Positions 21,034 to 50,000 of a DNA stretch of 64,000 bases are shown in pieces. The stretch is from positions 7,335-71,334 of the forward strand of contig QZKU01000026.1 in the NCBI GenBank assembly GCA_003598085.1. The letters run 5' to 3'. Source of the DNA: Candidatus Abyssobacteria bacterium SURF_5. Lineage in GTDB: Bacteria > Abyssobacteria > SURF-5. The position numbers were made by a program, and so were the translations under genes. The notes beneath the pieces were generated by a model, which worked only from the letters and a program-made list of their open reading frames with translations, was not told where the DNA came from and searched no databases. Position 1 is the first letter of the stretch. Every line of letters begins with the position of its first letter.

Positions 21034-21053
21034 ATGAACCCTACTTGAAAAAG

Positions 21054-21746: not shown

Positions 21747-21791
21747 TGATCTCTTTGTCCCTCCCTTGTCTTCCGTTATTCCTTCTCATTA

Positions 21792-22976
21792 TTATGGGAC
21801 TGTTGGCTTGGATTGCTTTTGAGCAGGACAAAAATTCTTGAAATCACATGCTGTGCAGGTTCTAATATTCTGATTAGTCTTCCAGCATTTTCTGATAGCT
21901 ACTCCAGCAATTTCTGCAAGCACGGAAGCCTCAATTTCTTCAACAGTTTGATCAAATCTGGATAAACTAGCTCCTATCGCACTTTTATTCACGGGAATAA
22001 TTCTTATTGAGCGATTTTCTTTGAACGTCCTAGAAAGACTAGGTAAATTGCTGCGTCGGTTCCAGCGTTGGATATTTTCTAGGTCCTTGCCTGTTGCCAT
22101 TATATCAGTTTGGCCTTGGTTGATATCGTTCTTAAGTGCTAGCATATCTTCAATTGATAAAGCTAATTCATTTATATATATGAGTATACCCGCTATTATT
22201 TGCTTTGCGCCCACCTGTTGTGATCGTAGCCAGGAATAGGTGAGAATCTGCCATTCGTGATGTTTCCACGTTTCGTCAACAAAAGAAGGGCGGCGCATGC
22301 CTTTGTAATCGACAATGATTTCATATTCATCAAGGGAAGAAACTTTGAAGTAATGCTGAACATCTGAATGCTGATTCAAATAATGCAGAAGCAGACTTCC
22401 AGATGGAGCATTTACAATGCTAACAGAGCTTATGACATCAATAACGCCCTTCATTCCATAATAATTTGATCTGCTAAGATTGGGATGATAACTTGGCATG
22501 TCTCGACTGCACTTCAATTTCACTTCTGCCTCGGCAATTATTGGAAACAGATGCATTCCCCATGTGTTTATGGCCATTTCTGCTCGCTGGCTAGCAATAA
22601 GTTTATGTGGATGATTGGCGTCGGGACAAAACCCTGGTGTCGTTGCAGAAGAATCAAATGGACAAAAAAGATTTGGCGGAGGTGGAAGACCTCTCGCGAT
22701 CAATCTATCATTAATTTGCGCTTCGACATTACGGATGTCTGATTCCCATAGCCACGGAAATCTTCTCTTTTTTGGCTCGTCACGCCATTCACGATACGCC
22801 TCTTCCATCAATCCATGGATAAATTCACCAAACCACAACTGAACCGGAGTCGATGGTGGGAGGGACCCTTTATTGTAATATCTATACTGAAGGCCGCATG
22901 TTAAGAATGCCAACAAGTCACCCGTCAAGCTGTATTCAGGAATACTATACGGTTTTGGTCGTACAGAAAGAAACAT
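21792..22976 (-). CDS. Cas4/RecB-like PD-(D/E)xK nuclease with a 4Fe-4S cluster cysteine set
   Basis: N-terminal C...YRYY motif (LTCGLQYRYY) typical of the Cas4/AddB nuclease domain. Core MKGVIDVI (Asp) plus IVDYKG (D-x-K). C-terminal Cys triad CTACDFKNFC. 394 aa. Confidence 0.68.
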   Translation of the reverse strand: MFLSVRPKPYSIPEYSLTGDLLAFLTCGLQYRYYNKGSLPPSTPVQLWFGEFIHGLMEEAYREWRDEPKKRRFPWLWESDIRNVEAQINDRLIARGLPPPPNLFCPFDSSATTPGFCPDANHPHKLIASQRAEMAINTWGMHLFPIIAEAEVKLKCSRDMPSYHPNLSRSNYYGMKGVIDVISSVSIVNAPSGSLLLHYLNQHSDVQHYFKVSSLDEYEIIVDYKGMRRPSFVDETWKHHEWQILTYSWLRSQQVGAKQIIAGILIYINELALSIEDMLALKNDINQGQTDIMATGKDLENIQRWNRRSNLPSLSRTFKENRSIRIIPVNKSAIGASLSRFDQTVEEIEASVLAEIAGVAIRKCWKTNQNIRTCTACDFKNFCPAQKQSKPTVP

Positions 22977-22982
22977 TTGCTC

Positions 22983-25331
22983 CTACCTCAAATGTGTCAG
23001 GTTTTGTAGTCCCCTGCCCCAATGCCAGGTATTACCTCTATCCCATCCGGTGCCGATATTGCGGATTCTATTTTTGACGGCATTCAGCCCAACTAGCAAG
23101 AGGACATCCTGAGCTCTACTGAAGGCAACAAAGTAATGTCTAATAAGATCGTCAAATGCTCTATCAAGGGATGAACGTGTTGACGTTCCCAAGGGAGAAA
23201 ACTGCCTCAATTCATCTTCAATCTTACATGTTTTGCCGCCATCTCTTGGGAATCTCTTAAAAGCCTGTCGCCAGTGATTTATCCTAAAATCACTTCCTAC
23301 ATCTACAATTACAAATGGGAATTCCAGTCCTTTTGCCTGATGAATTGACATGATATTAACTCTGTCGCTAGGAAGCGTATCAAGTAGGTCCTCATTGACT
23401 TCTATGGCTCCGCTGGCTAATGGAACAAAGATGTTCCAAAGCGCCTCTTTAACAAAAGCGTGCTCTAGACGGATATCGGCCTTATTTGGGTCGAATAGGA
23501 TTTCTGCTCCGAAGCTTCCAAACAAACCACTCTGATTGATGGATCTAGTTATAGCTTCAAGATAAACCAATCCTTCTATGTCGTCTTGCATGCTAGGTAT
23601 CCAAGTCACAAGCTTATAAACTAGATCATTCAGTGGGACTCTCTCCTTTTTCTGAATTCTTCTCCCCAGAGGAATTCGAGATTGCCAAGATTGAACGAAC
23701 TGTTGAAGATGTTCCTTGTTTGCGAGGTGGTTATTATTGACATAACCCATGGCATGGTCACGCCACGAGTTGAATGTGTTGGCCGCTGTCGTCGGCAGAT
23801 TTGTTAAACTCTTTTGAACGGAACTCCATGGATCAACACATTCCAGAATTAGACCACAAAGCACTTGCACTTCTGGAATTTGTTGAAGGGGACATCCGCG
23901 TGGATTAAAAACTTCAATTCGGGGCGATGCTTCATGTAGTTCAGTTCGTAGGAGAAAGGGAAGTCGCGGTCTATCAGAGTAATCAAATTCTTGCGGAGAA
24001 GAACATAACAAGGCAATATCACCGAGAGAGCCATCTTTGTTCAGCTTAATCGTAGCTGCCTGTCCTTTTTGGGGGATCCGCAGACCTTGTCCTCTCGACA
24101 CTTCTTCAATGAGTACAGCCAAATCATGAGCTAACGATCCGACGTCGTCTCTAAACATACCTAGAATTGGACATTCTTGTGGTTCTGGAATTTGCCGTAC
24201 GTGTTTAATTTTAGGTTTAGAGTTTACGCGAGCTTTCTGAAATTGCTGATCCAAGCCAATGAAGTTATTTATAAATTCTACGATAGTCGGAGTCGACCGA
24301 TAATTTAAAGAAAGATATTTTGGAACTGGTTTGAGATTTAAACATTTGGCCATTCTCTTTTCGAACGACCGAAATAATTCTACTGTTGCACCGCGAAAGC
24401 GGTAAAGCGATTGATCGTCATCTCCGACAACAGTAATGCTTCCCTTGTTAATTAAGGCAGCACGTGTCAATTCAAAGTATATCTTCTCTTGAAGTAGGTT
24501 TGTGTCCTGATATTCATCTATTAGGACGAACTTTATATTTTGAAGAAAGGAGTTTAACTTTTGGGAAAGAATTTGTTGAAAAAACTCTGCTTCTAATTTT
24601 GCAAAATCGTACAAAAGCTTCTTCTGTAATTCTTGATTATATGCAGTGATGGCATCACACGCAATTTGTGCTCCCAAATGCTGAGCCTTCCGTTGGAATG
24701 CAGAAATATCTATTTGGTCATGAAAGAAACGGTCTTTAATTTCTCTTAAAGTAGAACTTAACTCAGGAACATTTAACCCGAAGGTTCCACCTCTTAAAGA
24801 AGCAACATAATTCAGCAGATTTGGGTCCTTGTATCTGCCATTGGAAAAAAGGCCAGTCCGCATCATCAAGGCATTTGAAACAAAATCTTGGACTACGATT
24901 GGCGCAGGAGCACCAGGAGCGCGATAATTTCCTAAAGTCTCTTCAGCTATGCTGTCCAGAGTTCCTGTAATAATCCTGTTGAAATCTAGTGACTTCAACC
25001 TTGATCTTAACTTCTCGTATGATGAATCCTTTAGGAAAGCAGCACGAAGTTGGTCTCCCCATCCTAGAATCCTTGACCTAAGTTCAGCGGCAGCTTTACG
25101 GGTAAAGGTGGTAACCAATACATTCGAGGGGTCCATTTCATCAAGATATATTAACTTCAGCACTCTAAGTGTAATGACAGTTGTCTTACCACTGCCCGGT
25201 CCCGCGATAAGATAAAGCGAGGAACCTTGAGCAGCCTTAATCGCTTCATATTGGCTAAGATTTTTTTCTTTTCGTATGTCTCTCTGAATGAAGGTCAATA
25301 CGGCTTTTTCAAAATCGGGCCAACTAATCAT
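22983..25331 (-). CDS. UvrD/Rep/PcrA-like superfamily-1 DNA helicase
   Basis: Walker A AGPGSGKT, Ia VTTFTRKAAAEL, motif II VLIDEYQDTN, III VVGDDDQSLYRFRGA, IV LSLNYRSTPTIVEF and VI IHQAKGLEFPFVIV; 782 aa; 6-nt gap to the nuclease gene. Confidence 0.88.
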   Translation of the reverse strand: MISWPDFEKAVLTFIQRDIRKEKNLSQYEAIKAAQGSSLYLIAGPGSGKTTVITLRVLKLIYLDEMDPSNVLVTTFTRKAAAELRSRILGWGDQLRAAFLKDSSYEKLRSRLKSLDFNRIITGTLDSIAEETLGNYRAPGAPAPIVVQDFVSNALMMRTGLFSNGRYKDPNLLNYVASLRGGTFGLNVPELSSTLREIKDRFFHDQIDISAFQRKAQHLGAQIACDAITAYNQELQKKLLYDFAKLEAEFFQQILSQKLNSFLQNIKFVLIDEYQDTNLLQEKIYFELTRAALINKGSITVVGDDDQSLYRFRGATVELFRSFEKRMAKCLNLKPVPKYLSLNYRSTPTIVEFINNFIGLDQQFQKARVNSKPKIKHVRQIPEPQECPILGMFRDDVGSLAHDLAVLIEEVSRGQGLRIPQKGQAATIKLNKDGSLGDIALLCSSPQEFDYSDRPRLPFLLRTELHEASPRIEVFNPRGCPLQQIPEVQVLCGLILECVDPWSSVQKSLTNLPTTAANTFNSWRDHAMGYVNNNHLANKEHLQQFVQSWQSRIPLGRRIQKKERVPLNDLVYKLVTWIPSMQDDIEGLVYLEAITRSINQSGLFGSFGAEILFDPNKADIRLEHAFVKEALWNIFVPLASGAIEVNEDLLDTLPSDRVNIMSIHQAKGLEFPFVIVDVGSDFRINHWRQAFKRFPRDGGKTCKIEDELRQFSPLGTSTRSSLDRAFDDLIRHYFVAFSRAQDVLLLVGLNAVKNRIRNIGTGWDRGNTWHWGRGLQNLTHLR

Positions 25332-25350: not shown

Positions 25351-28300
25351 TCACCAGTTCAGCGGCTGCTGCCATGCCCGCTTCAATTGGAATATATCGG
25401 CTGAAAGGATCTTTTGTCTGCCATTTTTCAAGACCAGGAGTGGAGATCGTGTTACTTTTCCCGCTCTGGCAAATGGGACTCCATCCATCATTTGTTCAAA
25501 CTCTTTCGCTTTTCGAGGAGGAACAGTTATCACGAACCGGCTCTGGGACTCGGAGAATAGCAGGTAATCGGCGCGCAGAGGTTCAGGCTGCGGAACGGCG
25601 GACAGATCGGCCGTGATGCCGAATCCGCCGGCAAAGGCGCTTTCCGCAAGCGCGACTCCGAGACCGCCGTCGGAGCAGTCGTGGCACGAGGCGATCAGGC
25701 GGCGATCGATCGCATCCGATACTCTTGAATAAATCTGTCTTGCAAGCTGAGAATTCACCCGCGGTACTGAATTCCCGATGAACCCGTGGTGCGCGAAGTA
25801 TTCGCTGCCGCCCAGTTCATTCTTCGTCACGCCGACCACGTATACGAGGTGGCTTGGCCGCTTCACGTCCATCGAAACGACTTTGCGCACGTCCTCGATC
25901 CGCCCGAGCACCGAGAACAGGAGCGTGGGCGGCACCGATATCTTGATGTCGCCGATCATGTAATCGTTCTTCATGCTGTCCTTGCCCGAGATGCAGGGAA
26001 CATCGTACGCCGTACAATAGTCGTAAAGCGCCATGTTCGAACGGACAAGCTGCGCGAGTTTGTAGTACCCGTCGGGCGTCTTCTCCGATTGCACAGGATC
26101 GGGCCAGCAGAAGTTGTCGAGTCCGGCCAGATACCCAAGCCGGCCGCCGACAGAAATCGCATTTCTCACCGCCTCGTCGATAGCGCAGGCGGTCATGTGA
26201 TATGTGTCGAGGTCGCTGTAGCGCGGGCAGATGCCGCTCGCAACGACCACGCCTTCATATGAATCATACAGAGGCTTCAGGACGGCTGCATCGCCGGGCC
26301 CGTCATTGGAGCTGCCGATAAACGGCTTGAGCGCGCTCAAGCCCTGGACCTCATGATCGTATTGCCGTACAAACGACTCTTTGCTGCACACGTTCAGCCG
26401 CGCCAGCATCTGCTCCAGCAAACGGTTGTAGTCCTGCGGCTCGGGAAGGTCCGGCTCTTCGTGCTTCGGCGCCTTCCAGCGCGCCTGCAAATTCATTCTC
26501 GGCACGCCCTCATGCAGGAAATCCATGTCGAGGTGAGCAACCACCTTACTTTCGTACAGAACCTCAAATTTGCCGGAATCGGCAAATGTTCCAAGCACCG
26601 TCGCTTCGACGTCGCGCCTCCTGGCCAGTTCGAGAAAGCGATCGATCTTTTCGGGATCAACCGCGAGCGTCATTCGCTCCTGCGCTTCCGATAGCAGGAT
26701 TTCCCACGGCTGCAGGCCCTTATATTTCAAGGGCGCCTTCTCAAGTTCGATCCGGCATCCGTTGGAGAAGCGCGCCATTTCGCCGACCGACGACGAAAGG
26801 CCGCCGGCGCCGTTGTCCGTGATCGCGCGGTACAATCCCAGATCGCGGGCCTCAAGCAGGAAATCGGTCATCTTCTTCTGCGTGATCGCGTCGCCGATCT
26901 GAACCGCCGACGTCGGCGACTCGCTGTGAAGTTCTTCGGATGAAAAGGTGGCGCCGTGAATGCCGTCCTTGCCGATCCGACCGCCGGTCATCACGATCAG
27001 GTCGCCCGGCAAAGCGGTCTTTTCATGCGCCGGCTCGCCGAGTATCTCCTTCGGCATGAGCCCGCCTGTCCCGCAGAACACGAGCGGCTTGCCCGCGTAA
27101 CGGTCGTCAAAGAGGATGCTGCCGTTGACATCCGGAATCCCGCTCTGGTTTGCGCCGTCGCGCACGCCACGGTGCACGCCCTTGAAGATGCGCTTCGGAT
27201 GGAGCAGGCGGGGCGGGAGAGGCTTGTCATAATCCGGTGGAGCGAAACAGAACGTGTCCACATTGAAAATCAGACGACACCCCTTGCCGGTGCCGAAAGG
27301 ATCACGGTTGACGCCGACGATGCCGGTTACCGCGCCGCCGTATGGATCGAGAGCTGACGGGCTGTTGTGCGTTTCCACCTTCATGACCAGGTTCCACCTG
27401 TCATTGAAGCGGATGACTCCGGCATTGTCGTGGAAAACCGATACCAGCCACGGAACCCGCTTGGAAATCTCGTCGGTCGAACGTCTGATATACGTCTTGA
27501 ACAGGCCGTTGATTTGGCGCCGGCCCTGTTCGTCCTCATAATCGATGAAGGCGTTGAATATCTTGTGCTTGCAATGTTCCGACCACGTCTGCGCAATGCA
27601 TTCCAGTTCGACGTCTGTCGGCTGATTCGAAAGTCCGTACCTGCTGCGATCGCGAATCGCGTTTTCGCTGCGAAAATAATTGCGGATCACCCGCATCTCA
27701 TCGAGACTGAGCGAAAGGATCCCCTCGCGGCTGATGCGTATCAGCTCCTGGTCGGACACAGCAAGATCGAAAGCCTTGACATGGACTGGCTGCGGTGTCC
27801 CTGCCAACGGAAGCGGGAGTGAGATGCCGCCGGAACGGCGGAATTCATCGGCGTCGGCGATGCGCCACTGTTCGATCAGGCCGTTGGCCAGCAGCCCGCC
27901 GGCGATTCTCTCAACCTGAGCCCGCTCCAGGCGGCCCCGCAAAACATATTGTTTGGCGGTGAAGACGGTGCTCCCGTCCGCGCGCTCTCCAAAGATATCG
28001 ATCATCGCCTCGCGCGAAGTCTTGCCTACATTATCGGTGACTCCGGGTTTGAAGCCGATTTCGATGACCCACGAGAAATCAGAGGCCAGAGGCTGGTCGA
28101 GCGTGGACACATCGATGACGGGATCGGCGAACAGGTGCGTGCGAAGCATGTCGGCGTCGTCGCATCTCAGGCTGGTCAACAGCGTGTATACCCGTATTAG
28201 CCGCGCGTCGTCGACGGCGATATGCAGGTCTTCCACGATATTTTTTCGAATGGCGTCGCCCGCGGCATCGAATTGATCGCGCCGCAGCCCGACTTCTATT

Positions 28301-28380
28301 CTGTAGGTATTAAGATCAATCACGGTTACCGCCGGTACTTTACCTTCCCTGTCCCCGAAACTATTCGCCCGATAGTCCAA
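25351..28380 (-). CDS. purL: Phosphoribosylformylglycinamidine synthase subunit PurL with N-terminal PurS-like domain(s) fused. The annotated start is TTG; an alternative GTG at 28323 sits 2 nt after the purM stop
   Basis: AIR-synthase-related domains (SFGDREG..., PurM-like repeats) with an N-terminus resembling PurS (KPGVTDNVGKTSREAMIDI); 1009 aa. Confidence 0.85.
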   Translation of the reverse strand: MDYRANSFGDREGKVPAVTVIDLNTYRIEVGLRRDQFDAAGDAIRKNIVEDLHIAVDDARLIRVYTLLTSLRCDDADMLRTHLFADPVIDVSTLDQPLASDFSWVIEIGFKPGVTDNVGKTSREAMIDIFGERADGSTVFTAKQYVLRGRLERAQVERIAGGLLANGLIEQWRIADADEFRRSGGISLPLPLAGTPQPVHVKAFDLAVSDQELIRISREGILSLSLDEMRVIRNYFRSENAIRDRSRYGLSNQPTDVELECIAQTWSEHCKHKIFNAFIDYEDEQGRRQINGLFKTYIRRSTDEISKRVPWLVSVFHDNAGVIRFNDRWNLVMKVETHNSPSALDPYGGAVTGIVGVNRDPFGTGKGCRLIFNVDTFCFAPPDYDKPLPPRLLHPKRIFKGVHRGVRDGANQSGIPDVNGSILFDDRYAGKPLVFCGTGGLMPKEILGEPAHEKTALPGDLIVMTGGRIGKDGIHGATFSSEELHSESPTSAVQIGDAITQKKMTDFLLEARDLGLYRAITDNGAGGLSSSVGEMARFSNGCRIELEKAPLKYKGLQPWEILLSEAQERMTLAVDPEKIDRFLELARRRDVEATVLGTFADSGKFEVLYESKVVAHLDMDFLHEGVPRMNLQARWKAPKHEEPDLPEPQDYNRLLEQMLARLNVCSKESFVRQYDHEVQGLSALKPFIGSSNDGPGDAAVLKPLYDSYEGVVVASGICPRYSDLDTYHMTACAIDEAVRNAISVGGRLGYLAGLDNFCWPDPVQSEKTPDGYYKLAQLVRSNMALYDYCTAYDVPCISGKDSMKNDYMIGDIKISVPPTLLFSVLGRIEDVRKVVSMDVKRPSHLVYVVGVTKNELGGSEYFAHHGFIGNSVPRVNSQLARQIYSRVSDAIDRRLIASCHDCSDGGLGVALAESAFAGGFGITADLSAVPQPEPLRADYLLFSESQSRFVITVPPRKAKEFEQMMDGVPFARAGKVTRSPLLVLKNGRQKILSADIFQLKRAWQQPLNW

Positions 28381-38880: not shown

Positions 38881-40995
38881 ATGCGAACAAAATATATTCT
38901 TATCGCCGCAGGAGCGCTGATCTTGATTGTGGCGATTGTGATCAGCGTGGTCCTGATCCGGTTTGACTACAATACGCTCAAGCCCAGAGCGGAGCGCGCG
39001 GTTTATCAGGCGACCGGCCGCGAACTGAATCTTGAGGGCGATGTCAAACTCCATCTGGGTCTTTCGCCCATACTTGCCGTTGAAAGTGTCACCTTCGAGA
39101 ACGCCGAGTGGGGTTCTCAACCCAATATGGCGACGATGGAACGCCTCGAAGTGCAGGTCGCCCTTATCCCGCTCCTTCGCAGAGACATCCAGGTCAAGAA
39201 TCTGGTGCTCGTCGGGCCCGATATCCTTGTCGAAACCAGCAAAACCGGCGAATCAAATATATCCTTTGGTCAAAAACCGAAAAAGGAGGAGCAGCCTCCT
39301 GAGCCCAAACCCGGCGAGGATGGGGATGGACTGAAGTCATTCACTTTCGAGGAGGTACGAATAGAAAACGGGCGGCTGACTTACAAGGATCAGAGAAAGG
39401 ATACTACCCACACTGCCACTCTCCTGAGCTTTCAAGCCACTGAAAAAAGCGGTGGTTTAATTCAAATGGAGGCCGAAGGCGCTTATAACGAGAATCCGTT
39501 TGAAATGGAAGGTACAGTGGGCTCCCTTGCGGCAATCACCGATCCGCAGGATCCGTGGCCGGTGAAATTGAGGGCCAAGACGCTGGGAACCGATGTACAT
39601 TTGAATGGAGCCGTTCAGGATGTGCTTGGGGCAAAGGGTATTGATTTGAATCTTATAGCAGAAGGGCAGTCCCTGACTGAAGTTGCGACATTGGCGGGTG
39701 TGAAAGAGGTTCCGGATCTTGGGAAGTTTGACTTGTCAGCCAGATTGACCGATCCCGCAGAAAACACCTATAAGTTGTCTGATATCAAAGCGCACCTGTC
39801 TAATAGCGATATCTCCGGTACAGCGGAGTTTTCAATGGAGGGTGAACGACCTCGGTTTTCAGCGGCTTTTGAGTCGCAAGTCCTTGACCTTCGCTCAATC
39901 ATGGCGGAGGAGAAGAACAATTCAAAGAAAACCGAGCCCGCCGGTCAGACCCAATCCACGAAACAGAAGGTTTTCTCAGAAAATGAATTGCCCCTGGATA
40001 TCGTTAAAAAGGTGGATGGAGAGGCCAACCTGCAGGCTAAACACATCCTCTTGCCACGGCTCGCACTCACCGATTTGGCAACCAAGATCACCCTGAACAA
40101 TGGAACACTTGCGATACAGCCGATACAGGCTTCAGCCGGCGGCGGGTCCTTCGCCGGCCAATTGAATCTGTCAGCAAAAGCCGAGACAGCCGATCTGAAT
40201 GTTAATCTGAAAATCGATCAACTCGACCTCGAGCGCATGCTGAGCGAGTTGGGAATTGTGGACCGCATCTACGGTAAGCTCGATGCCGATATCGAATTGA
40301 CGGGAAACGGTGATTCAGTTGCCGAATTGATGGCCGGGTTGGACGGGAAGACCGTGATGAGCATGGGCGGCGGGCGAATCAATAACAAATATCTATCACT
40401 GCTTGAAGGAGATTTTGGATCGGGACTCTTCCGCCTGCTGTACTCGCCGTCGGAAGGAATGGATTATACCGAACTGCAGTGCTTTGTCAGCCGGTTCGAC
40501 ATCAAGAACGGGCTCGCAAAGAGCACCGTCCTCCTCATCGCCACCGAAAGCATAACCGTGGCCGGCGAGGGAATCATTGATTTGCGAACCGAGGAACTCG
40601 ATCTCGCAATTGTGCCTGCCGCTAAAGAAGGAGTGCTCGCCGAAGCCGGCGCCAGGACGGGAGTTGATATCGGCGAATTGAGCAAATCCTTCAGACTCGG
40701 AGGCACTCTGGCGAATCCAAGGCTGGCGATCGATCCCCGGCAACCGGTGACGATCATCAGTCAGCTTTTGGGCGGTAAACAGGAGCCTTCCGGCATCGCC
40801 GCAGTTCTCGCCGGCGAATCGGAGGGCGACGATCCCTGCTCAATTGCTATGAACATTGCAGAAACAGGTGAGGTGCCACAGGCAGCCCCCAAAAAAGAAG
40901 AAGGGACAATCACGGAGCAACTGCCTGCCGATATGCCGGGCAAAGATGTTCTGGGCGAGGCGGAACAGCAGTTGAGGAAACTATTCGGGAAATGA
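38881..40995 (+). CDS. AsmA-family outer-membrane/lipid-transport protein
   Basis: N-terminal TM anchor, then a long AsmA-like beta-rich region; preceded by the RBS aaggagg; 704 aa. Confidence 0.7.
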   Translation: MRTKYILIAAGALILIVAIVISVVLIRFDYNTLKPRAERAVYQATGRELNLEGDVKLHLGLSPILAVESVTFENAEWGSQPNMATMERLEVQVALIPLLRRDIQVKNLVLVGPDILVETSKTGESNISFGQKPKKEEQPPEPKPGEDGDGLKSFTFEEVRIENGRLTYKDQRKDTTHTATLLSFQATEKSGGLIQMEAEGAYNENPFEMEGTVGSLAAITDPQDPWPVKLRAKTLGTDVHLNGAVQDVLGAKGIDLNLIAEGQSLTEVATLAGVKEVPDLGKFDLSARLTDPAENTYKLSDIKAHLSNSDISGTAEFSMEGERPRFSAAFESQVLDLRSIMAEEKNNSKKTEPAGQTQSTKQKVFSENELPLDIVKKVDGEANLQAKHILLPRLALTDLATKITLNNGTLAIQPIQASAGGGSFAGQLNLSAKAETADLNVNLKIDQLDLERMLSELGIVDRIYGKLDADIELTGNGDSVAELMAGLDGKTVMSMGGGRINNKYLSLLEGDFGSGLFRLLYSPSEGMDYTELQCFVSRFDIKNGLAKSTVLLIATESITVAGEGIIDLRTEELDLAIVPAAKEGVLAEAGARTGVDIGELSKSFRLGGTLANPRLAIDPRQPVTIISQLLGGKQEPSGIAAVLAGESEGDDPCSIAMNIAETGEVPQAAPKKEEGTITEQLPADMPGKDVLGEAEQQLRKLFGK

Positions 40996-42186
40996 TAACG
41001 CTGAGGTCGGCGCGAGAAGGCTTTGTTCTGCAGGCAAACTTATCCTGACAGTCGTCCCTCTATTCTTCTTGCTTCTGATGATCATGCTTCCCTTGTGCGC
41101 CCGCACAATCTTTCTCGAAATACTGAGCCCAAGCCCTACGCCACCCGGTTTCGTACTGAAAAAGGGCTCGATGACGCGTGGAAGGTTCTCCGGAGAAATT
41201 CCGCATCCGCGGTCGGCGATTCTCAGTATCACCCGCTTCGGGTTTTGATATGGAAAATTTCGCGACCGGATCGCGAGTAAGCCACCACGGGGCATTGCTT
41301 CAATAGAGTTGGTGATGATATTGGAAAGACCTTGCGCAAGTTTTTCCTTGTCTCCCATCACTCTTACCGAATCGACATCCAGCTCTTTTCTCACTTTGGT
41401 ATTCTTGAGCTTGTAGCTTACCTTGTCCAGGGCCTCGTCTACCACCTCGCTGACGGTTAACGATGAAATCTGTAGATGCAAAGGAAGTGCATAATCCACC
41501 AGATAATTGATGACTTCGGCCAGAGCATTGACTCCGTAATGAAGCTCCCCCAGTATTTCGATCGTATTCCGCTGCCCTTTCACTTCCTTTGCCAACATCT
41601 CGATTCCCATTTCAATCACCTGCAGCGGATTTCGCACTTCATGAGCCACAAAAGCCACTGCACGCTCCAGGGCCGCCAGCCTCTCCGCGCGACTGAACAA
41701 TTCATGTTTACTTCTTAACAAAGTGATGTCACTGGCAACCCCCGCAAATTTCACCACCTTCCCGTCCTTGTCGGTAATGGGAAAACCCCGGTCTCGAATC
41801 CAGCGGATGGAAGCATCCGGCCGCACAATCCTGTATTCCATTTCTTCCTGATATCCACCCTTCATCCAATTAAAAACCCGCGGACGGTCGCGCGGATGAA
41901 TGGCTTCCAGGAAAGAATAAGGCTCCTTGTGCAGGCTTTCGCGGGAGCGCCCCCAGATCGTCTCATACGCCGGACTCACATAAATCATCTTCTTCGGATA
42001 TGGCGTGCTCATCCAGAAAACATCCTGAATCGTCTCCGTCACCAATCGAAACTTCTCCTCGCTCTCTTTCAACTCCTTGACGGCTAGCTCGCATTTGGTT
42101 GAGATTTTTTGCAGTTTATCCAGTTCCGCTTCGAGGTGAGCAACACTTTCCAGCAGTTGCTCCTTTGTTTTCGCCGTGCGCACCAT
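40981..42186 (-). CDS. PAS-domain sensor histidine kinase
   Basis: H-box FVAHEVRNPL; N, G1, F and G2 boxes (NSIEA, DRGCGI, FFSTK, GVGLGLS); PAS region N-terminal; 401 aa. Confidence 0.85.
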   Translation of the reverse strand: MVRTAKTKEQLLESVAHLEAELDKLQKISTKCELAVKELKESEEKFRLVTETIQDVFWMSTPYPKKMIYVSPAYETIWGRSRESLHKEPYSFLEAIHPRDRPRVFNWMKGGYQEEMEYRIVRPDASIRWIRDRGFPITDKDGKVVKFAGVASDITLLRSKHELFSRAERLAALERAVAFVAHEVRNPLQVIEMGIEMLAKEVKGQRNTIEILGELHYGVNALAEVINYLVDYALPLHLQISSLTVSEVVDEALDKVSYKLKNTKVRKELDVDSVRVMGDKEKLAQGLSNIITNSIEAMPRGGLLAIRSRNFPYQNPKRVILRIADRGCGISPENLPRVIEPFFSTKPGGVGLGLSISRKIVRAHKGSMIIRSKKNRGTTVRISLPAEQSLLAPTSALSFPE

Positions 42187-43679: not shown

Positions 43680-44447
43680 TTACCGCGAGCGGCTTCTACC
43701 CAGCTCAAAAGACATCCCGTCTTCAGCTACGACCACTTCACCGTGATACGCCCTTCGGCACTGGCCGGCCAAATCGTAACCGGCGGCAACCGGATATATA
43801 TGCGTCAGCGCCAATTTCCTGCAAGCTGCGCGCTCCGCCATCTCGCCCGCTTTCTCCGGAGTTAAATGGCCGGGAACCGCTATCTCATTTGGATAAGAGC
43901 ATTCCAGTATGAGCAAATCGCTTCCGTCCGCCAATCGAATTATGTTTTCACTGTAATCAGTGTCTCCTGAATACACCAGAGCGGCGCCGTCAGCCTCAAG
44001 ACGATACGAATATGCCGGCTGCGTATGCTCGGCCTTTGTCAGATCCAGCCGCCATGTCGCCCCCTCGAGCGGCTCTCCATGCAGCTCCTCGATGAAGAGT
44101 TCGTATCGTTTCGGAGTAAGCCAGTCTCCGTAAGCTGTCACAAGATTCTCATAAAGCCTCTGAATGCCGGGCGGCCCAAAGAGCGCCAATGAATTCGTGC
44201 GGTTGACATCCGGAATGTTCAGCGCAAACAGAAGCGCCGCCAGATCGCCCACGTGGTCGGTGTGAAAATGGGTGAAAAACAGCATGTCCAATGCCGCCCA
44301 ATGAATCCCGGCATGCGCCATTGCCCTTACGGCGCCAGGACCGCAGTCGAAAACCAGCAATTCTTTCCCCACATTCACCGCAATACAGGGCGAACCGCGG
44401 TCTGGATTCGGTATCCCGCAGCCTGACCCCACGATGGTTACTTTCAC
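43680..44447 (-). CDS. MBL-fold metallo-hydrolase (RNase Z / beta-lactamase-like)
   Basis: HFHTDHVGD motif (HxHxDH); 255 aa. Confidence 0.75.
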   Translation of the reverse strand: MKVTIVGSGCGIPNPDRGSPCIAVNVGKELLVFDCGPGAVRAMAHAGIHWAALDMLFFTHFHTDHVGDLAALLFALNIPDVNRTNSLALFGPPGIQRLYENLVTAYGDWLTPKRYELFIEELHGEPLEGATWRLDLTKAEHTQPAYSYRLEADGAALVYSGDTDYSENIIRLADGSDLLILECSYPNEIAVPGHLTPEKAGEMAERAACRKLALTHIYPVAAGYDLAGQCRRAYHGEVVVAEDGMSFELGRSRSR

Positions 44448-44681
44448 AATGGCTCCTCCATCTCTCCTTCTATCACCCTATTCAGAATTTATCAAGATAT
44501 TATAGCTCTCCCAGCCTCTTGCGATTCCGATTTCCTGCCATTAATTTGTCATTTTCCCACATTTATCATGTTTCAATACGAAACAACAAGCGGCCTCACT
44601 CTCGACGATCTTACCATTCAGCGCCCCCATGAACAGATATAACCACCTGACAAGCAAAGAGTTACAAATAAATAATATAGT

Positions 44682-44697
44682 TGGCACACCGGTTGCA
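44682..44697 (+). promoter_or_regulatory. Sigma-54 (RpoN) -24/-12 promoter element upstream of dnaK
   Basis: tTGGCACaccggTTGCAat matches the consensus TGGCAC-N5-TTGCW exactly. It lies about 60 nt upstream of the dnaK ATG in a 300-nt AT-rich intergenic region. Confidence 0.6.
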
Positions 44698-44757
44698 ATC
44701 AATACAGTCGAGAAAATAACTCTGAACATGGACTCTTAAACTAAGGAGATGATTTTA

Positions 44758-46686
44758 ATGGCAAAAGTTATCGGCATAGATTTGGGTACCACGAACTCGT
44801 GTGTTGCAGTGCTCGAAGGCGGGGAATCCGTGGTCATCCCGAACAGTGAGGGCGGCAGGACAACGCCGTCTGTAGTCGCTTTCACAAAGACCGGCGAACG
44901 ACTGGTCGGCACAGTGGCAAAGCGACAGGCAATCACCAATCCCGAAAACACGGTTTTCTCGATAAAACGCTTCATGGGCCGCAAATACGGGGAAGTAAGC
45001 AGCGAGATCAAGCTGGTGCCTTATAAAGTGAGCGCCGCGCCAAATGGCGATTGTCAGGTGGCGGCAGGCGGAAAGACTTACCGGCCGCCGGAGATCTCGG
45101 CGATGATTCTGCAGAAAATGAAACAGAGCGCCGAGGATTATCTCGGGCAGAAAGTGACTCAGGCTGTCATTACCGTTCCGGCCTATTTCAACGACTCTCA
45201 GCGCCAGGCCACAAAGGATGCGGGAAGGATTGCCGGTCTGGAGGTTCTTCGGATCATCAATGAACCCACGGCGGCATCGCTGGCGTATGGTTTGGACAAA
45301 AAGAAGGACGAGAAAATCGCCGTTTATGACCTTGGCGGCGGCACATTCGATATCTCCATCCTCCAATTGGGTGAGGGCGTTTTCGAAGTGCTTTCGACCA
45401 ACGGTGACACTCATCTAGGCGGCGACGATTTCGACCAAAGGGTCATCGACTGGCTGGCCGACGAGTTCAAGAAGGAACAGGGAATCGACCTGCGGAAAGA
45501 CCGGATGGCCCTGCAACGGCTGAAGGAAGCTGCGGAGAAGGCAAAGATCGAGCTTTCGAGCTCGCAGACAACCGATATCAATCTCCCATTCATTACAGCC
45601 GATGCGGCAGGCCCGAAGCACCTGAATATCACGCTGACTCGTTCGAAACTCGAGCAACTCGTTGACGATCTGGTCGAGCGAACGCGCGGACCTGTCATGC
45701 GGGCCCTCCAGGACGCCGGATTGAACCCCGAACAGGTCGATGAGGTTGTCCTTGTCGGCGGGCAAACCCGCATGCCGAAGGTGCAGGACCTGGTAAAGGG
45801 CATCTTCAAGAAGGACCCGCACAAGGGAGTGAACCCCGACGAGGTTGTCGCCATAGGGGCGGCGATCCAGGCGGGTGTTCTCGCCGGCGAGGTCAAGGAC
45901 GTGTTGCTGCTCGACGTGACTCCGCTCTCGCTCGGCATCGAGACCAAAGGCGGCGTCTTCACGAAACTGATCGAGCGCAATACTACCATCCCGACCCGCA
46001 AGAGCGAGATATTCACCACCGCGGAAGACAACCAGACCAGTGTCGAGATTCACGTGCTGCAGGGTGAGCGCGAAATGGCCTCCAACAACAAGACCATCGG
46101 CCGGTTCCACCTGACAGGACTGCCGCCGGCGCCGCGCGGCCTGCCGCAGATCGAGGTGACCTTCGATATCGACGCAAACGGGATCTTGCACGTGTCTGCG
46201 AAGGACCTTGCGACCAGCCGCGAGCAGAAAATCCGCATCGAGGCGTCCAGCGGCTTGAACGAACAGGAGATAGACCGCATGGTAAAAGACGCTCAGGTGC
46301 ATGCGGGCGAAGACCGTCAGCGTCGCGAAAAAGCCGATGCCACCAACCGGGCGGAATCGTTGGTCTACGAGACCGAGAAAAACCTCAGGGAGCTCGGAGA
46401 CAAGTTGTCTCCTGATGCCAGAAGCAGCATCGAGACTGCCGTCGGGCGCGTTAACGAGGCAATCAAGTCCGGCGAAGTCGGCGAGATTAAATCTTCGACC
46501 GATGCCCTGCAACAAACCTGGCAACAGGTGTCGAGTGAAATCTATCAGAAAGCCGGCGCACAGGCCGGGCCTCAGTCCGGCGCGGCGGGCGGACCGAGCG
46601 GAAACGGCTCGCGCAAGGAGGAAAGAGGCGGCGGCGAAGACGTAATCGACGCCGATTATGAAGTGGTAGATGAGGACAAAAAGTAG
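44758..46686 (+). CDS. dnaK: Molecular chaperone DnaK (Hsp70)
   Basis: [18 protein letters not shown]..., DLGGGTFD and [10 protein letters not shown] signatures; RBS aaggag 9 nt upstream; 643 aa. Confidence 0.95.
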
Positions 46687-46708
46687 AAAATGAAAGGAGG
46701 AAACGAAT

Positions 46709-47176
46709 ATGGCCATCATGAGATGGAGACCAAGAGCTGAAATGGATCCCTTCAGAGACCTGATGGGGATCCAGGATGAAATTAACCGCCTGTTCGACTG
46801 GACTCTGAGCAGACGGCCGTCCGAGGGCGCCGGCCTGCTCCAGGGCGAATGGGCGCCGGCTATCGATGTGGCCGAAAATGAGAACTCGGTCTTTGTGAAG
46901 GCGGAACTTCCGGGAATGAGCGAGAAGGACATTGACGTCAACATTTTGGGCAACACCTTGACGATCAAAGGCGAGAAAAAGAAGGAAGAGGAGAAAAAGG
47001 AACACAGCTACTACCGGCTCGAACGCTCGTACGGCTCATTCCAGCGCTCAATCACGCTCCCGACCGTGGTGGATTCCGCCAAATGCAAGGCCTCTTTCAA
47101 GAATGGCGTTCTCGAAATCGAGATGCCCAAGAAAGAAGAGGCCAAGCCGAAACAGATCAAGGTGAACATCGACTGA
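46709..47176 (+). CDS. Hsp20/alpha-crystallin family small heat-shock protein
   Basis: Alpha-crystallin domain (AIDVAENENSVFVKAELPGM...GVLEIEMPK); RBS aaaggagg; 155 aa. Confidence 0.85.
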   Translation: MAIMRWRPRAEMDPFRDLMGIQDEINRLFDWTLSRRPSEGAGLLQGEWAPAIDVAENENSVFVKAELPGMSEKDIDVNILGNTLTIKGEKKKEEEKKEHSYYRLERSYGSFQRSITLPTVVDSAKCKASFKNGVLEIEMPKKEEAKPKQIKVNID

Positions 47177-47374
47177 TTTCCGAATGGCCACGGAGACTGT
47201 CCGACAAGGTGCGACGGAGAATGTCCAGGCGAAGGGGACGGGCTCCATGTAGGGAAATGGCGCCTGTCCCCGAAGCAAGAATCAATCGATCATCGAACTG
47301 TCTCATAGATCCAGTGCAAAAAACCGGCGTAAACAAAGCCGCGATAACCATACCTGATAAAGGAGGAAAAATAG

Positions 47375-47728
47375 ATGAATATCCCGAGGCCGGAAAAACA
47401 ACGCTTTCGCATCCCTGCCGTCGAAATACGGGAGACGCCGACAGCCGTTATTCTCCAGGCCGAGATGCCGGGAGTCGACAAGGAAGATTTCGACATCCAA
47501 ATCGACGGCGATGAATTGACCGTAAAGGGAAAACGCAAGCAACTGAAATCCGATCTGAGAGTGATCCACCAGGAAAGCGATTCCGCCGAATACCTGCGAA
47601 GCTTTATCCTGGGCGATGAACTCGATACCTCAGCGGTCGACGCAAAGACGGAAAACGGTATCCTCACGCTGACACTCCATAAGAAGAAAGAAGCGGCGCC
47701 CCAAAAAATCGCCATAAAAAGTGCATGA
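47375..47728 (+). CDS. Hsp20/alpha-crystallin family small heat-shock protein (second paralog)
   Basis: Alpha-crystallin domain (VEIRETPTAVILQAEMPGV...GILTLTLHK); RBS aaaggagg; 117 aa. Confidence 0.8.
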   Translation: MNIPRPEKQRFRIPAVEIRETPTAVILQAEMPGVDKEDFDIQIDGDELTVKGKRKQLKSDLRVIHQESDSAEYLRSFILGDELDTSAVDAKTENGILTLTLHKKKEAAPQKIAIKSA

Positions 47729-47804
47729 GAGGACAGATACCCCGCCGGCATCGCGCCCACACCTGTTCGCGAGTGTCTGCGGGGTTTGCTCTGTGTCAAA
47801 CCGT

Positions 47805-47833
47805 TTGATGTGAATGAAGATATGTGGTAAAAT
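47805..47833 (+). promoter_or_regulatory. Sigma-70-like promoter upstream of htpX
   Basis: TTGATG-17 nt-TAAAAT, about 56 nt upstream of the htpX start. Confidence 0.4.
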
Positions 47834-47889
47834 ATTGATGAGTCTGATGATAAAGCCGGGCTTCCCCAAAGGCCCAAGGAGGAATATTA

Positions 47890-48738
47890 TTGATGAATAC
47901 TCTTCGGACAGCGTTCCTGCTGACAGCGCTCACGCTCCTGCTCATATTCGTCGGGCAGGCCGTCGGCGGCAGGGACGGCGCAATGATCGCGTTCTTTTTC
48001 GCGCTGATCATGAATGTCGGCTCTTACTGGTTCAGCGATAAACTCGTTTTGAAAATGTACCGCGCGCAGCCGGTCTCGCCGAACGAGGCGCCAAGACTCT
48101 ATTCGATGGTGCAGGAGTTGGCGCTCAGTGCGGGATTGCCGATGCCGCGCGTGTATATTATCCCGAGCCAATCGCCGAATGCCTTCGCGACCGGCAGAAA
48201 CAAGAACCACGCCGTCGTGGCCGTGACACAGGGCATACTGAGTCTGCTTGACGAAAACGAGCTTCGCGGTGTGCTCGCTCACGAACTCGCGCATGTGCGA
48301 AACCGCGACATGCTGGTCGGCTCGATAGCGGCCACGCTCGCCGGCGCCATCTCGATGCTGGGAATCATGATCCGCTGGGGCGCGATGTTCGGCGGCTTCG
48401 GCGGCAGAGACGACCGAGACAACGGCGGCGTATTCGGCCTGCTCGCCGCTGCAATATTGGCCCCAATCGCGGCAACGATCATCCAACTCGCCGTTTCGCG
48501 CTCGCGCGAATATGGCGCTGATGATTCAGGCGCTCGAATCGCCGGAAGCCCGTACGGACTCGCCGATGCATTGGCAAAGCTCGAGCGCGGCGCGCAGGCA
48601 AGACCGCTTCAGGCCAACCCGGCCTCGGCTCACCTGTTCATCGTCAATCCGCTGCGCGGTAAAAGCATCTGGAACCTGTTGAGCACGCACCCGCCAATCG
48701 AGGAACGCATCCGCCGATTGCGCGCGATGAGGCCGTAA
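47890..48738 (+). CDS. htpX: Zinc metalloprotease HtpX (M48 family)
   Basis: [10 protein letters not shown] (HExxH), N-terminal TM helices; 282 aa. Confidence 0.88.
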
Positions 48739-48756
48739 CGTAAAGGAGAAATTCTT

Positions 48757-48797
48757 ACGGGGTCGTGTCATCACATGACCCCGTTTCTTGTGTTTTC
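48757..48797 (+). terminator. Rho-independent terminator after htpX
   Basis: Hairpin acggggtcgtg-tcatca-catgaccccgt followed by ttcttgtgttttctt. Confidence 0.65.
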
Positions 48798-48838
48798 TTG
48801 CCACGACTCGATATTGGAGCGGCTGTTTCTTCTTGTTC

Positions 48839-48867
48839 TTGACAAAGTTCCGAGTGGTCCATATAAT
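48839..48867 (+). promoter_or_regulatory. Consensus sigma-70 promoter (TTGACA-17-TATAAT) for the dGTPase-like gene
   Basis: cTTGACAaagttccgagtggtccaTATAATacc: both hexamers perfect, with a 17-nt spacer. Confidence 0.6.
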
Positions 48868-48872
48868 ACCGC

Positions 48873-50000
48873 GTGAAACCTCCATCTTTGCCGCGAACTA
48901 TCGAGAAATCAAACATTAACCCGCGACGGGTGAAATCTTTTTCCATGAAATCAGAAAACGACTTCTGCGTACGAGGAATGATTATCCGCAAGATGCTTGA
49001 GAAGCGCGAGCACGAATATCTCTCGCAGCGGGCTTCGTTCAGCGACGAGAGCAGAGGGAGAGCCAGGCCGATCGACGAGTGCCCGTACCGGACCAGCTAT
49101 CAGCGCGACCGGGACCGCATTATCCACTCAAAATCGTTCCGCCGCTTGAAGCATAAAACGCAGGTTTTCCTCTCGCCGACCGGCGACCATTTTCGCACGC
49201 GCCTCACTCATACCCTCGAGGTCGCCCAGATAGCCCGCACAATCTCGCGCGCCCTCTGCCTCAATGAAGACCTGACCGAGGCAATCGCCCTCGGGCACGA
49301 CCTCGGACATACTCCGTTCGGACATGCGGGTGAAACGGTCCTCAATGAGCTTCATAGCGGCGGGTTCTCTCACAACGAGCAGAGCCTGAGGATCGTGGAG
49401 AAACTGGAGAACGGCAAGGGCTTGAACCTCACCTTCGAGGTGCGCGACGGAATTCTCAACCATTCAAAGGGGCCGATTGACATATTTGAGGGCGCCAACG
49501 GCGAAGGCCCAACAACGCTTGAAGGGCAGGTCGTGCGAATTTCGGACGGGATCGCCTATATTAACCACGACATAGACGACGCCATCCGGAGCGGATTGAT
49601 CGGCAACCACGATCTTCCCCCGGAATGTGTGAGAGTCCTCGGAAACACTTCTTCTTCCCGGATCGACCGAATGGTGGCCGACGTTATTCTCAACAGCCAG
49701 GAGGCCTGCATCCAGATGAGCCCGGACATATTGCGGGCGACAAATCGCTTGCGTGCTTATCTGTTCCAAAACTTGTATCCGCGCCCGGAAATCCAGGACC
49801 CAATCAACAGGACCAAGAGAATTTTGAAAGAGATCTTCTACCTGCTCATCGAAAATCCGAATATCTTTCTGAATGAAATAAAAATCGCCGAGCCCGAAGA
49901 GCCGCTCGAGCGCCTGGCAGTGGATTTCATAGCGGGCATGACCGACCGCTACGCTCTCGATTTCTATAGGTCTCATTTCCTGCCTCAATTTGGAGTCTGA
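48873..50000 (+). CDS. dGTP triphosphohydrolase-like HD-domain phosphohydrolase. The start is uncertain because the promoter -10 ends at 48867; an internal Met at 48945 or 48978 is more likely
   Basis: HD-domain motifs RTRLTHTLEVAQIAR...LGHDLGHTPFGHAGE...DID; 375 aa in the track. Confidence 0.8.
   Translation: MKPPSLPRTIEKSNINPRRVKSFSMKSENDFCVRGMIIRKMLEKREHEYLSQRASFSDESRGRARPIDECPYRTSYQRDRDRIIHSKSFRRLKHKTQVFLSPTGDHFRTRLTHTLEVAQIARTISRALCLNEDLTEAIALGHDLGHTPFGHAGETVLNELHSGGFSHNEQSLRIVEKLENGKGLNLTFEVRDGILNHSKGPIDIFEGANGEGPTTLEGQVVRISDGIAYINHDIDDAIRSGLIGNHDLPPECVRVLGNTSSSRIDRMVADVILNSQEACIQMSPDILRATNRLRAYLFQNLYPRPEIQDPINRTKRILKEIFYLLIENPNIFLNEIKIAEPEEPLERLAVDFIAGMTDRYALDFYRSHFLPQFGV

Follow-up and report, generated by a model that had tools for sequence, protein, structure and literature searches.

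A probable sigma-54 promoter with a conserved upstream palindrome precedes the dnaK-hsp20-hsp20 genes of a Candidatus Abyssubacteria genome

Introduction

Which sigma factor, and which kind of regulator, governs the main chaperone operon of a bacterium outside the model phyla? Textbook accounts of heat-shock control rest on sigma-32, on HrcA with its operator, the controlling inverted repeat of chaperone expression (CIRCE), on HspR and on CtsR, and to our knowledge the master regulator of the heat-shock response outside the model phyla is mostly unknown. The dnaK locus of Candidatus Abyssobacteria bacterium SURF_5 raises this question directly, since an initial annotation of its DNA placed a sigma-54 promoter of the -24/-12 type in front of dnaK. 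In this work we analyzed that promoter and its surroundings within a stretch of 64,000 nucleotides (nt) of contig QZKU01000026.1 (positions 7,335 to 71,334 of the forward strand; assembly GCA_003598085.1), hereafter the window, to which all coordinates refer unless a locus is named. Our findings make it highly probable that the element is a genuine sigma-54 (RpoN) promoter controlling dnaK and the two hsp20 genes that follow it (hsp20a and hsp20b). The SURF_5 metagenome-assembled genome (MAG) originates from the former Homestake mine, at a depth of 1.5 km, and was placed within or near the candidate phylum Hydrogenedentes in a study that did not treat sigma factors or chaperones (PMC6121073).

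Results

A single exact -24/-12 element lies upstream of dnaK

The dnaK gene (44758-46686, plus strand) is separated from its upstream neighbour, a divergent gene for an MBL-fold hydrolase (43680-44447, minus strand), by a spacer of 310 nt (44448-44757). Within this spacer, the sequence TGGCAC-N5-TTGCA (TGGCACACCGGTTGCA; 44682-44697, plus strand) matches the sigma-54 consensus exactly, with GG at 44683-44684 (positions -25/-24) and GC at 44695-44696 (positions -13/-12), the two dinucleotides being exactly 10 nt apart. No other exact TGGCAC-N5-TTGCW occurs on either strand of the 64 kb, and the initial annotation was right in reporting an exact match at this place. Dinucleotide-preserving shuffles gave a mean of 0.10 exact matches per window, with at least one match in 10 of 100 shuffles, and at this chance expectation of about 10% the bare match can only be called suggestive. 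When up to two mismatches were allowed, the window held 50 matches against 61 expected, i.e., the motif is not enriched. The position of the element within the spacer strengthens the case for a promoter, as it is intergenic, lies on the same strand as dnaK and stands 76 nt upstream of the ATG at 44758. From the -24/-12 geometry, transcription is predicted to start at 44706-44708 (plus strand), and the leader would then measure about 50 nt.

The -24/-12 bases are invariant in close relatives

Scans of genomes and metagenomes with DnaK retrieved relatives of at most 78% identity, and closer ones were obtained by protein search and context retrieval, yielding eight contigs (L161-L168) whose DnaK proteins are 81-93% identical to that of the window. 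All eight show the order dnaK-hsp20-(hsp20)-htpX followed by a gene for an HD-domain, dGTPase-like protein, while the upstream neighbour of dnaK varies by locus (MBL hydrolase, MFS transporter, MscS channel, PhoD-like protein, isocitrate/isopropylmalate dehydrogenase or an unknown). The nine dnaK upstream regions, that of the window and those of the eight relatives, align with a mean column identity of 56%, and four islands of conservation stand out: the -24/-12 element, a block further upstream, a short (G)TTA, and the ribosome-binding site with the start codon. The TTGGCA and TTGC columns are invariant in all nine loci (TTGGCAY-N5-TTGCW; variants TTGGCACACCGGTTGCA, TTGGCATTTGAATTGCT and TTGGCATCCTCCTTGCT), whereas the N5 spacer and the flanks vary. 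Invariance of these bases amid a diverged spacer rules out a chance match, and the pattern is what would be expected of -24/-12 bases under selection as a sigma-54 promoter. In addition, clpB of the relative L164 is preceded by TTGGCACCGATATTGC (L164:1238-1253), 46 nt before the start codon, which appears to be a second chaperone promoter of the sigma-54 type in this clade.

Could TTGGCAY-N5-TTGCW instead serve an unrelated DNA-binding protein as its operator, or be recognized as a promoter by an alternative sigma factor other than sigma-54? Such a reading draws on the fact that sigma-54 use in this lineage is itself deduced here from DNA sequence, but we find it hardly credible. The conserved bases reproduce the sigma-54 consensus exactly, including the distance of 10 nt between GG and GC, and the element is neither a palindrome nor a direct repeat, unlike usual operators. 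Genes for bacterial enhancer-binding proteins (bEBPs) occur in related loci, e.g., in the Gemmatimonadaceae locus L055, and the same architecture is found before chaperone genes in an organism where sigma-54 use was mapped experimentally (PMC9723704).

A phased palindrome marks a candidate enhancer

The conserved upstream block (44545-44586, plus strand; TTTGTCATTTTCCCACATTTATCATGTTTCAATACGAAACAA in the window, TGTTGAAnTTTTCCACATTTnnnCTGTTTCAAnATGAAACGA as clade consensus), seen as an island in the nine-locus alignment, is a candidate enhancer, or upstream activating sequence (UAS). As the block is kept with dnaK whatever the upstream neighbour, a role as promoter of a divergent gene can be dismissed. 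The initial annotation had pointed out that the spacer leaves room for bEBP sites and had recommended a search for inverted repeats upstream of the -24 element; the conserved block contains such a repeat, the palindrome GTTTCAATACGAAAC (GTTTC-N5-GAAAC) at 44570-44584, a conserved and phased candidate that we propose as the bEBP site. The motif has one exact copy in the window and is exact in seven of the nine Abyssubacteria-type loci.

The distances from the centre of the palindrome to the GG of the promoter are 94, 105, 106, 106, 107, 114, 116, 117 and 117 nt in the nine loci (about 106 nt in the window), and they form classes of 94, 105-107 and 114-117 nt that are about one helical turn apart, as would be expected if an upstream-bound activator must face the polymerase. 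Enhancers of bEBPs are typically located 80-150 bp upstream and depend on the helical face, and the palindrome, centred at about -131 from the predicted start, falls in this classical range. The DNA between palindrome and promoter is 55-67% A+T. In the window it holds a weak match to the site of integration host factor (IHF), AAGCAAAGAGTTA (i.e., WATCAANNNNTTR with one mismatch; 44652-44664, plus strand), which is of low confidence and of which only (G)TTA is conserved.

The association of the palindrome with sigma-54-like sites extends beyond the close relatives. In a sample of 168 fetched loci plus the window (1.69 Mb), 13 of the 15 exact copies of GTTTC-N5-GAAAC are followed, at a distance of 40-220 nt, by a sigma-54-like site, an enrichment of about 200-fold. 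Copies precede the sigma-54-type promoters of hsp20-dnaK/hsp20 operons in loci labelled Eisenbacteria (L002:4603 and L016:5190), Hydrogenedentota (L047:3760) and Fibrobacterota (L074:1210), the taxon labels of MAG loci being those deposited, as well as in metagenome loci that bear no label and have the same hsp20-dnaK layout (L084:1592 and L104:4211). This recurrence over labelled phyla suggests an old, shared activator specificity.

A different possibility is that the sigma-54 promoter is real and the block is not its enhancer. The activator might then act while free in solution or bound elsewhere, and the block might bind another protein, e.g., a repressor or a nucleoid protein. Some bEBPs, such as FlgR and CtcC, lack DNA-binding domains; moreover, the palindrome is degenerate in L163 and L166, and the clpB promoter of L164 has no GTTTC-N5-GAAAC upstream even with one mismatch. 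We nevertheless judge this possibility unlikely, because the spacing classes of the palindrome are about one helical turn apart, its centre at about -131 has the position of a classical enhancer, and its roughly 200-fold enrichment is found specifically 40-220 nt upstream of sigma-54-like sites in several phyla. Upstream of clpB in L164, a stretch compared as a possible enhancer (CCGAATTTCCCAAT vs. TTGAATTCTTCCACA) showed a loose resemblance that was unconvincing, and it was set aside. Taken with the invariance of the -24/-12 bases in nine of nine loci, the phased palindrome argues for the initial proposal that dnaK is transcribed from a sigma-54 promoter under the control of an enhancer-binding protein.

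Other heat-shock control elements and sigma-70 hexamers at dnaK

The initial annotation had reported neither CIRCE, nor the HspR-associated inverted repeat (HAIR), nor a sigma-32-type promoter at dnaK, and motif searches of the window led to the same result. CIRCE (TTAGCACTC-N9-GAGTGCTAA) is absent from the window when up to three mismatches are allowed, and is likewise absent, with up to four mismatches, from the 1.5 kb upstream of dnaK in 151 related dnaK loci that have enough upstream sequence. No HAIR element (CTTGAGT-N7-ACTCAAG) was found near dnaK, and the four weak matches elsewhere in the window are not above chance in number. The sigma-32 consensus CTTGAA-N13-17-CCCCAT does not occur in the window, and among the nine aligned loci no near-match to it (at least 9/12) is conserved upstream of dnaK. 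The sequence CCCCCATGA at 44624-44632 was considered as a sigma-32-type element and rejected, as it lacks conservation and has no -35 at the proper distance. Regarding control by RNA, no thermometer or riboswitch was indicated in the leader, which folds at -8.4 kcal/mol (z = 0.19) and is not unusually structured; the ribosome-binding site is the only conserved part of its sequence. Rfam gave no match in the spacer or leader, and its sole sub-threshold match in 44300-48950 was to a small RNA model inside htpX (E = 0.15).

The spacer also holds sigma-70-like hexamers, CTGACA-18-AATAAT (44647-44676, plus strand), from which dnaK might be transcribed by the housekeeping sigma factor, the -24/-12 element then contributing little or nothing. 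These hexamers score 10/12, and L161 and L166 have similar ones in a corresponding position; furthermore, cells normally require a basal amount of DnaK, a need that a strictly activator-dependent promoter would serve poorly. However, comparable hexamers occur in only three of the nine loci and are not conserved in the other six. Since the hexamer columns vary over the alignment, CTGACA-18-AATAAT was rejected as the conserved dnaK promoter, and the nine-locus comparison revealed no conserved sigma-70 promoter upstream of dnaK. Canonical sigma-70 promoters are used and kept elsewhere in the clade, those of htpX and of the HD-domain gene being conserved in the relatives, and their absence before dnaK is therefore meaningful; the -24/-12 bases, in turn, are invariant. 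We thus regard transcription of dnaK mainly from the sigma-70-like hexamers as very improbable.

Genes and extent of the transcription unit

The product of dnaK is a canonical DnaK of 642 amino acids (Pfam HSP70, E = 6.5e-271; NCBIfam NF001413 and TIGR02350, both above their cut-offs) with 100% identity to the NCBI DnaK of Candidatus Abyssobacteria bacterium SURF_5. Public annotations of its start conflict (642 amino acids at NCBI, 645 at JGI). We place the start at ATG 44758, 9 nt after the Shine-Dalgarno sequence AAGGAG (44743-44748, plus strand), whose GGAG is conserved among the nine aligned loci. An earlier ATG in the same frame, at 44749, was chosen by one gene caller; we rejected it because it is part of the ribosome-binding region and its equivalent in L163 is out of frame; the spacing of the Shine-Dalgarno sequence and this out-of-frame equivalent both favour ATG 44758.

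The gene hsp20a (46709-47176, plus strand; 155 amino acids) begins 22 nt after dnaK and has its own GGAGG ribosome-binding site. It is followed by hsp20b (47375-47728, plus strand), whose 117 amino acids agree in length with the proteins of relatives (116-120), and by htpX (47890-48738, plus strand), which encodes an M48 zinc metalloprotease (Pfam Peptidase_M48; NCBIfam NF002826, score 380 against a cut-off of 369). The Pfam and NCBIfam matches confirm the order dnaK-hsp20-hsp20-htpX without adjacent grpE or dnaJ given by the initial annotation, and neither grpE nor dnaJ was found anywhere in the 64-kb window.

The promoter had been described as fronting all four genes, which probably holds for dnaK and the two hsp20 genes but not for htpX. 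After hsp20b there is a GC-rich hairpin, CCCCGC...GCGGGG (47740-47784, plus strand; -31.4 kcal/mol, z = -3.98), whose stem is conserved in relatives and which is the probable end, or an attenuation point, of the sigma-54 transcription unit. Beyond the hairpin, htpX has a promoter of the sigma-70 type with an extended TG, TTGATG-17-TAAAAT (47805-47833, plus strand), and its TTGAYR-N17-TAAAAT-like hexamers are conserved in place in all eight loci compared (window plus seven relatives). Given this hairpin and this promoter, the sigma-54 unit probably comprises dnaK-hsp20a-hsp20b, and htpX is most likely at least partly independent of it.

An intrinsic terminator, consisting of a 12-bp stem and a T-rich run (TTCTTGTGTT), follows htpX (48757-48784, plus strand), and a stem-loop is seen, by eye only, at the equivalent place in relatives. 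The next gene, for the dGTPase-like HD protein (48873-50000), is preceded by a perfect sigma-70 promoter, TTGACA-17-TATAAT (12/12; 48839-48867), conserved as CTTGACAAA...(C)ATATAATAC in all relatives; it is unusually strong for a housekeeping nucleotide hydrolase. Within the operon, three relatives, L164 (8000-8128 and 8543-8605), L165 and L166, carry reverse-complementary sequences on both sides of hsp20a (GCAAGAGGAGCCG upstream, CGGCTCCTCTTGC downstream), which could pair across the hsp20a mRNA. These sequences are absent from the window, where the spacer between dnaK and hsp20a is 22 nt long.

Sigma-54-type chaperone promoters in other phyla

In the set of 151 related dnaK loci, 54 carry a sigma-54 site of at least 9/11 matches within 200 nt upstream of dnaK, and 22 carry a site of at least 10/11. 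Judged by the remaining sequence of these loci, 1.65 and 0.29 would be expected, respectively. A wider set of 160 loci, which includes many from Gemmatimonadota and is thus not made up of independent cases, has 52 sites with at least 10/11 matches at any place. Directly upstream of dnaK stand 23 of them, and many of the remaining ones precede hsp20 (in hsp20-dnaK operons), J-domain or grpE-like genes. Together with the reports on Flavobacterium, Bacteroidota and Planctomycetota discussed below, the 54 of 151 loci make the initial statement that sigma-54-driven dnaK is uncommon an overstatement. The comparison with the 168 loci indicates that a sigma-54 logic of chaperone control probably reaches well beyond Bacteroidota and Planctomycetota.

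A different palindrome, TGYCA-N3-TGRCA, shows an enrichment of about 140-fold ahead of sigma-54-like sites (21 copies in 27.8 kb vs. 8 in 1.5 Mb) and may represent a second enhancer type. It is carried by many loci labelled Zixibacteria, Gemmatimonadota and Ignavibacteria and by Bacteroidota-like loci. Two to four copies of this 13-bp motif (e.g., TGTCATATTGGCA and TGCCAAATTGGCA) stand before sigma-54-type chaperone promoters, at a distance of about 80-170 nt. Loci labelled Zixibacteria, Ignavibacteria or Poribacteria, or related and unlabelled, in which the motif occurs are L004 (~1720-1830), L006 (~3210-3300), L009 (~3960-4050), L081 (~4060-4120), L082, L011, L062 and L128. In Gemmatimonadota loci (e.g., L022, L031 and L044) the motif abuts the -24 element, with CTGCCAAAAAGGCAG followed by 8-10 nt and then CGGTAC; this promoter-proximal position is an unusual place for a bEBP site.

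A bEBP gene (Sigma54_activat, AAA lid and HTH_8 domains) is located at L055:11442-12335 (minus strand), about 3.5 kb downstream of dnaK, and the same arrangement occurs at L039 (~8630) and L150 (~9408). In these three Gemmatimonadaceae loci the gene is flanked by TPR and TPR-HD (HD_5) genes, and its presence means that sigma-54 activators exist in Gemmatimonadota. Consensus sigma-54 promoters were also seen before two regulatory genes, namely, in a locus labelled Poribacteria (L011:1108-1671), a stand-alone receiver-domain gene that directly precedes dnaK and, in a locus labelled Latescibacterota (L063:12133), a gene for a sigma factor of the extracytoplasmic function (ECF) type.

Further observations in the window

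An orphan histidine kinase gene (PAS-HisKA-HATPase; 40981-42186, minus strand), with no adjoining response regulator, lies 2.5 kb upstream of the dnaK promoter. It is the sole signalling gene near that promoter, and there is no evidence of its involvement.

Elsewhere, a low-GC island (18479-25331, minus strand), with a GC content of 0.41-0.45 against about 0.55-0.59 in its flanks, sits between two purine-biosynthesis genes, a purQ-like gene (17622-18443) and a purL-like gene (25351-28380). The island encodes a DUF6884-DpdA-like protein (PADLOC DpdA, E = 2e-102), a HAD hydrolase, a small transmembrane protein with weak PycTM-like matches, a PD-(D/E)XK/Cas4-like nuclease and a UvrD/GajB-like helicase, and it resembles a DNA-modification or defence island acquired by horizontal transfer.

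Discussion

For the window taken alone, the annotation of a sigma-54 promoter upstream of dnaK is well supported and unsurprising. The sigma-54 holoenzyme binds -24/-12 elements as a closed complex, and an AAA+ enhancer-binding protein is needed for opening. Dependence of the main chaperone operon of Abyssubacteria on sigma-54 would therefore mean dependence on an ATP-driven activator, and from the features described above we infer how the operon may be switched on. Sigma-54 RNA polymerase would bind at 44682-44697 as a closed complex unable to open alone. An AAA+ enhancer-binding protein, presumably encoded elsewhere in the genome, would bind the upstream block, most likely at GTTTCAATACGAAAC (44570-44584), reach the polymerase by looping of the AT-rich intervening DNA, and open the promoter through ATP hydrolysis. 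Transcription would then start near 44706-44708, with a leader of about 50 nt that carries a strong Shine-Dalgarno sequence, and the transcript would span dnaK and both hsp20 genes up to the hairpin at about 47740-47784, while htpX would be expressed from its own sigma-70-type promoter. The gene content, and the parallel with the protein-quality-control genes that sigma-54 governs in Flavobacterium, point to proteotoxic or heat stress as the most likely inducing signal. The activator might in turn be restrained by DnaK in a feedback loop; the DnaK-sigma-32 and PspA-PspF systems would make this plausible by analogy, but it is pure speculation here.

Several observations weigh against this account. 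No rpoN or bEBP gene was found in the 64-kb window or in the L161-L168 loci, including by a six-frame scan for GAFTGA, Walker A and RpoN-box motifs; genes for bEBPs are often unlinked to their targets. The palindrome is degenerate, with two mismatches, in two of the nine loci (L163 and L166), the IHF-like matches are weak and inconsistent among relatives, and the sigma-70-like CTGACA-18-AATAAT may add basal transcription. TGYCA-N3-TGRCA, the other motif enriched before such promoters, is absent from the window spacer even with one mismatch and was for this reason rejected as the enhancer of this locus. As to the signal, induction in Flavobacterium was reported on blood agar, under osmotic stress and in plasma, and not in a heat-shock experiment (PMC9723704).

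A broader hypothesis can be put forward tentatively, namely that many poorly studied phyla (Abyssubacteria/Hydrogenedentota, Eisenbacteria, Fibrobacterota, Zixibacteria, Gemmatimonadota, Ignavibacteria and relatives), alongside Bacteroidota, run their core chaperone regulon from sigma-54 promoters instead of through sigma-32 or HrcA, under one or two ancient enhancer-binding proteins with sites of the type GTTTC-N5-GAAAC, as in the window, and of the sister type TGYCA-N3-TGRCA. We consider this possible, at somewhat less than even chances. If it is true, the enhancer motifs offer a direct handle on the master heat-shock activator and on the way in which it senses unfolded proteins. With the conserved pair of motifs, the regulon could be delimited over whole genomes and the activator retrieved by DNA affinity or by DNA affinity purification sequencing (DAP-seq), and its retrieval would make the sensing of proteotoxic stress in these bacteria testable.

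Control of stress genes by sigma-54 has precedents in well-studied bacteria. In E. coli, sigma-54 stress promoters include that of pspA, activated by PspF, and the internal promoter of ibpB. As in these cases, a stress-protective or small heat-shock gene is here predicted to be sigma-54-dependent and to require a bEBP; on the other hand, dnaK of E. coli depends on sigma-32, whereas in the window, which has no sigma-32-type promoter, sigma-54 apparently provides the principal conserved dnaK promoter. In Myxococcus xanthus, HsfA and HsfB control lonD, and there too a heat-shock gene is activated through a sigma-54 promoter, in that case by a dedicated two-component bEBP. The target gene and the lineage are different here, and the present locus has no linked two-component pair homologous to HsfA and HsfB.

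The closest parallel is Flavobacterium psychrophilum, in which sigma-54 (SM4) promoters with mapped transcription start sites precede dnaK, groESL, grpE-dnaJ, htpG, clpB and lon (Guerin et al., 2021; PMC9723704). In both organisms a -24/-12 promoter stands directly upstream of dnaK, and the promoter class is seen on further genes, which are chaperone and protease genes in F. psychrophilum and, in our comparison, clpB of L164 and hsp20, dnaJ-like and grpE-like genes of other phyla, the window itself showing dnaK-hsp20-hsp20 alone behind such a site. The present locus differs in that it belongs to an Abyssubacteria/Hydrogenedentes-related lineage and not to Bacteroidota, in its operon dnaK-hsp20-hsp20, and in that its promoter is predicted from sequence. 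The conserved and phased upstream palindrome is defined here and was not reported for F. psychrophilum (PMC9723704). Recently, a weight-matrix survey of 1,414 KEGG GENOME organisms from 16 phyla, published in PLoS One in 2025, reported for Bacteroidota and Planctomycetota an enrichment of sigma-54 promoters at the clusters of orthologous groups of GroEL, GroES, IbpA, GrpE, DnaJ and DnaK (PMC12316311). Like our comparison, that survey concerns computed -24/-12 matches upstream of chaperone genes and describes a lineage-specific trend rather than a single case; it does not include an analysis of enhancers, and a text search of it gave no mention of Gemmatimonadota or Hydrogenedentes. A limited literature search found no earlier report of GTTTC-N5-GAAAC or TGYCA-N3-TGRCA as upstream motifs. 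The arrangement itself, a sigma-54 promoter in front of dnaK, is thus already known, while Abyssubacteria are a new lineage for it and the enhancer motif is a new detail of this locus.

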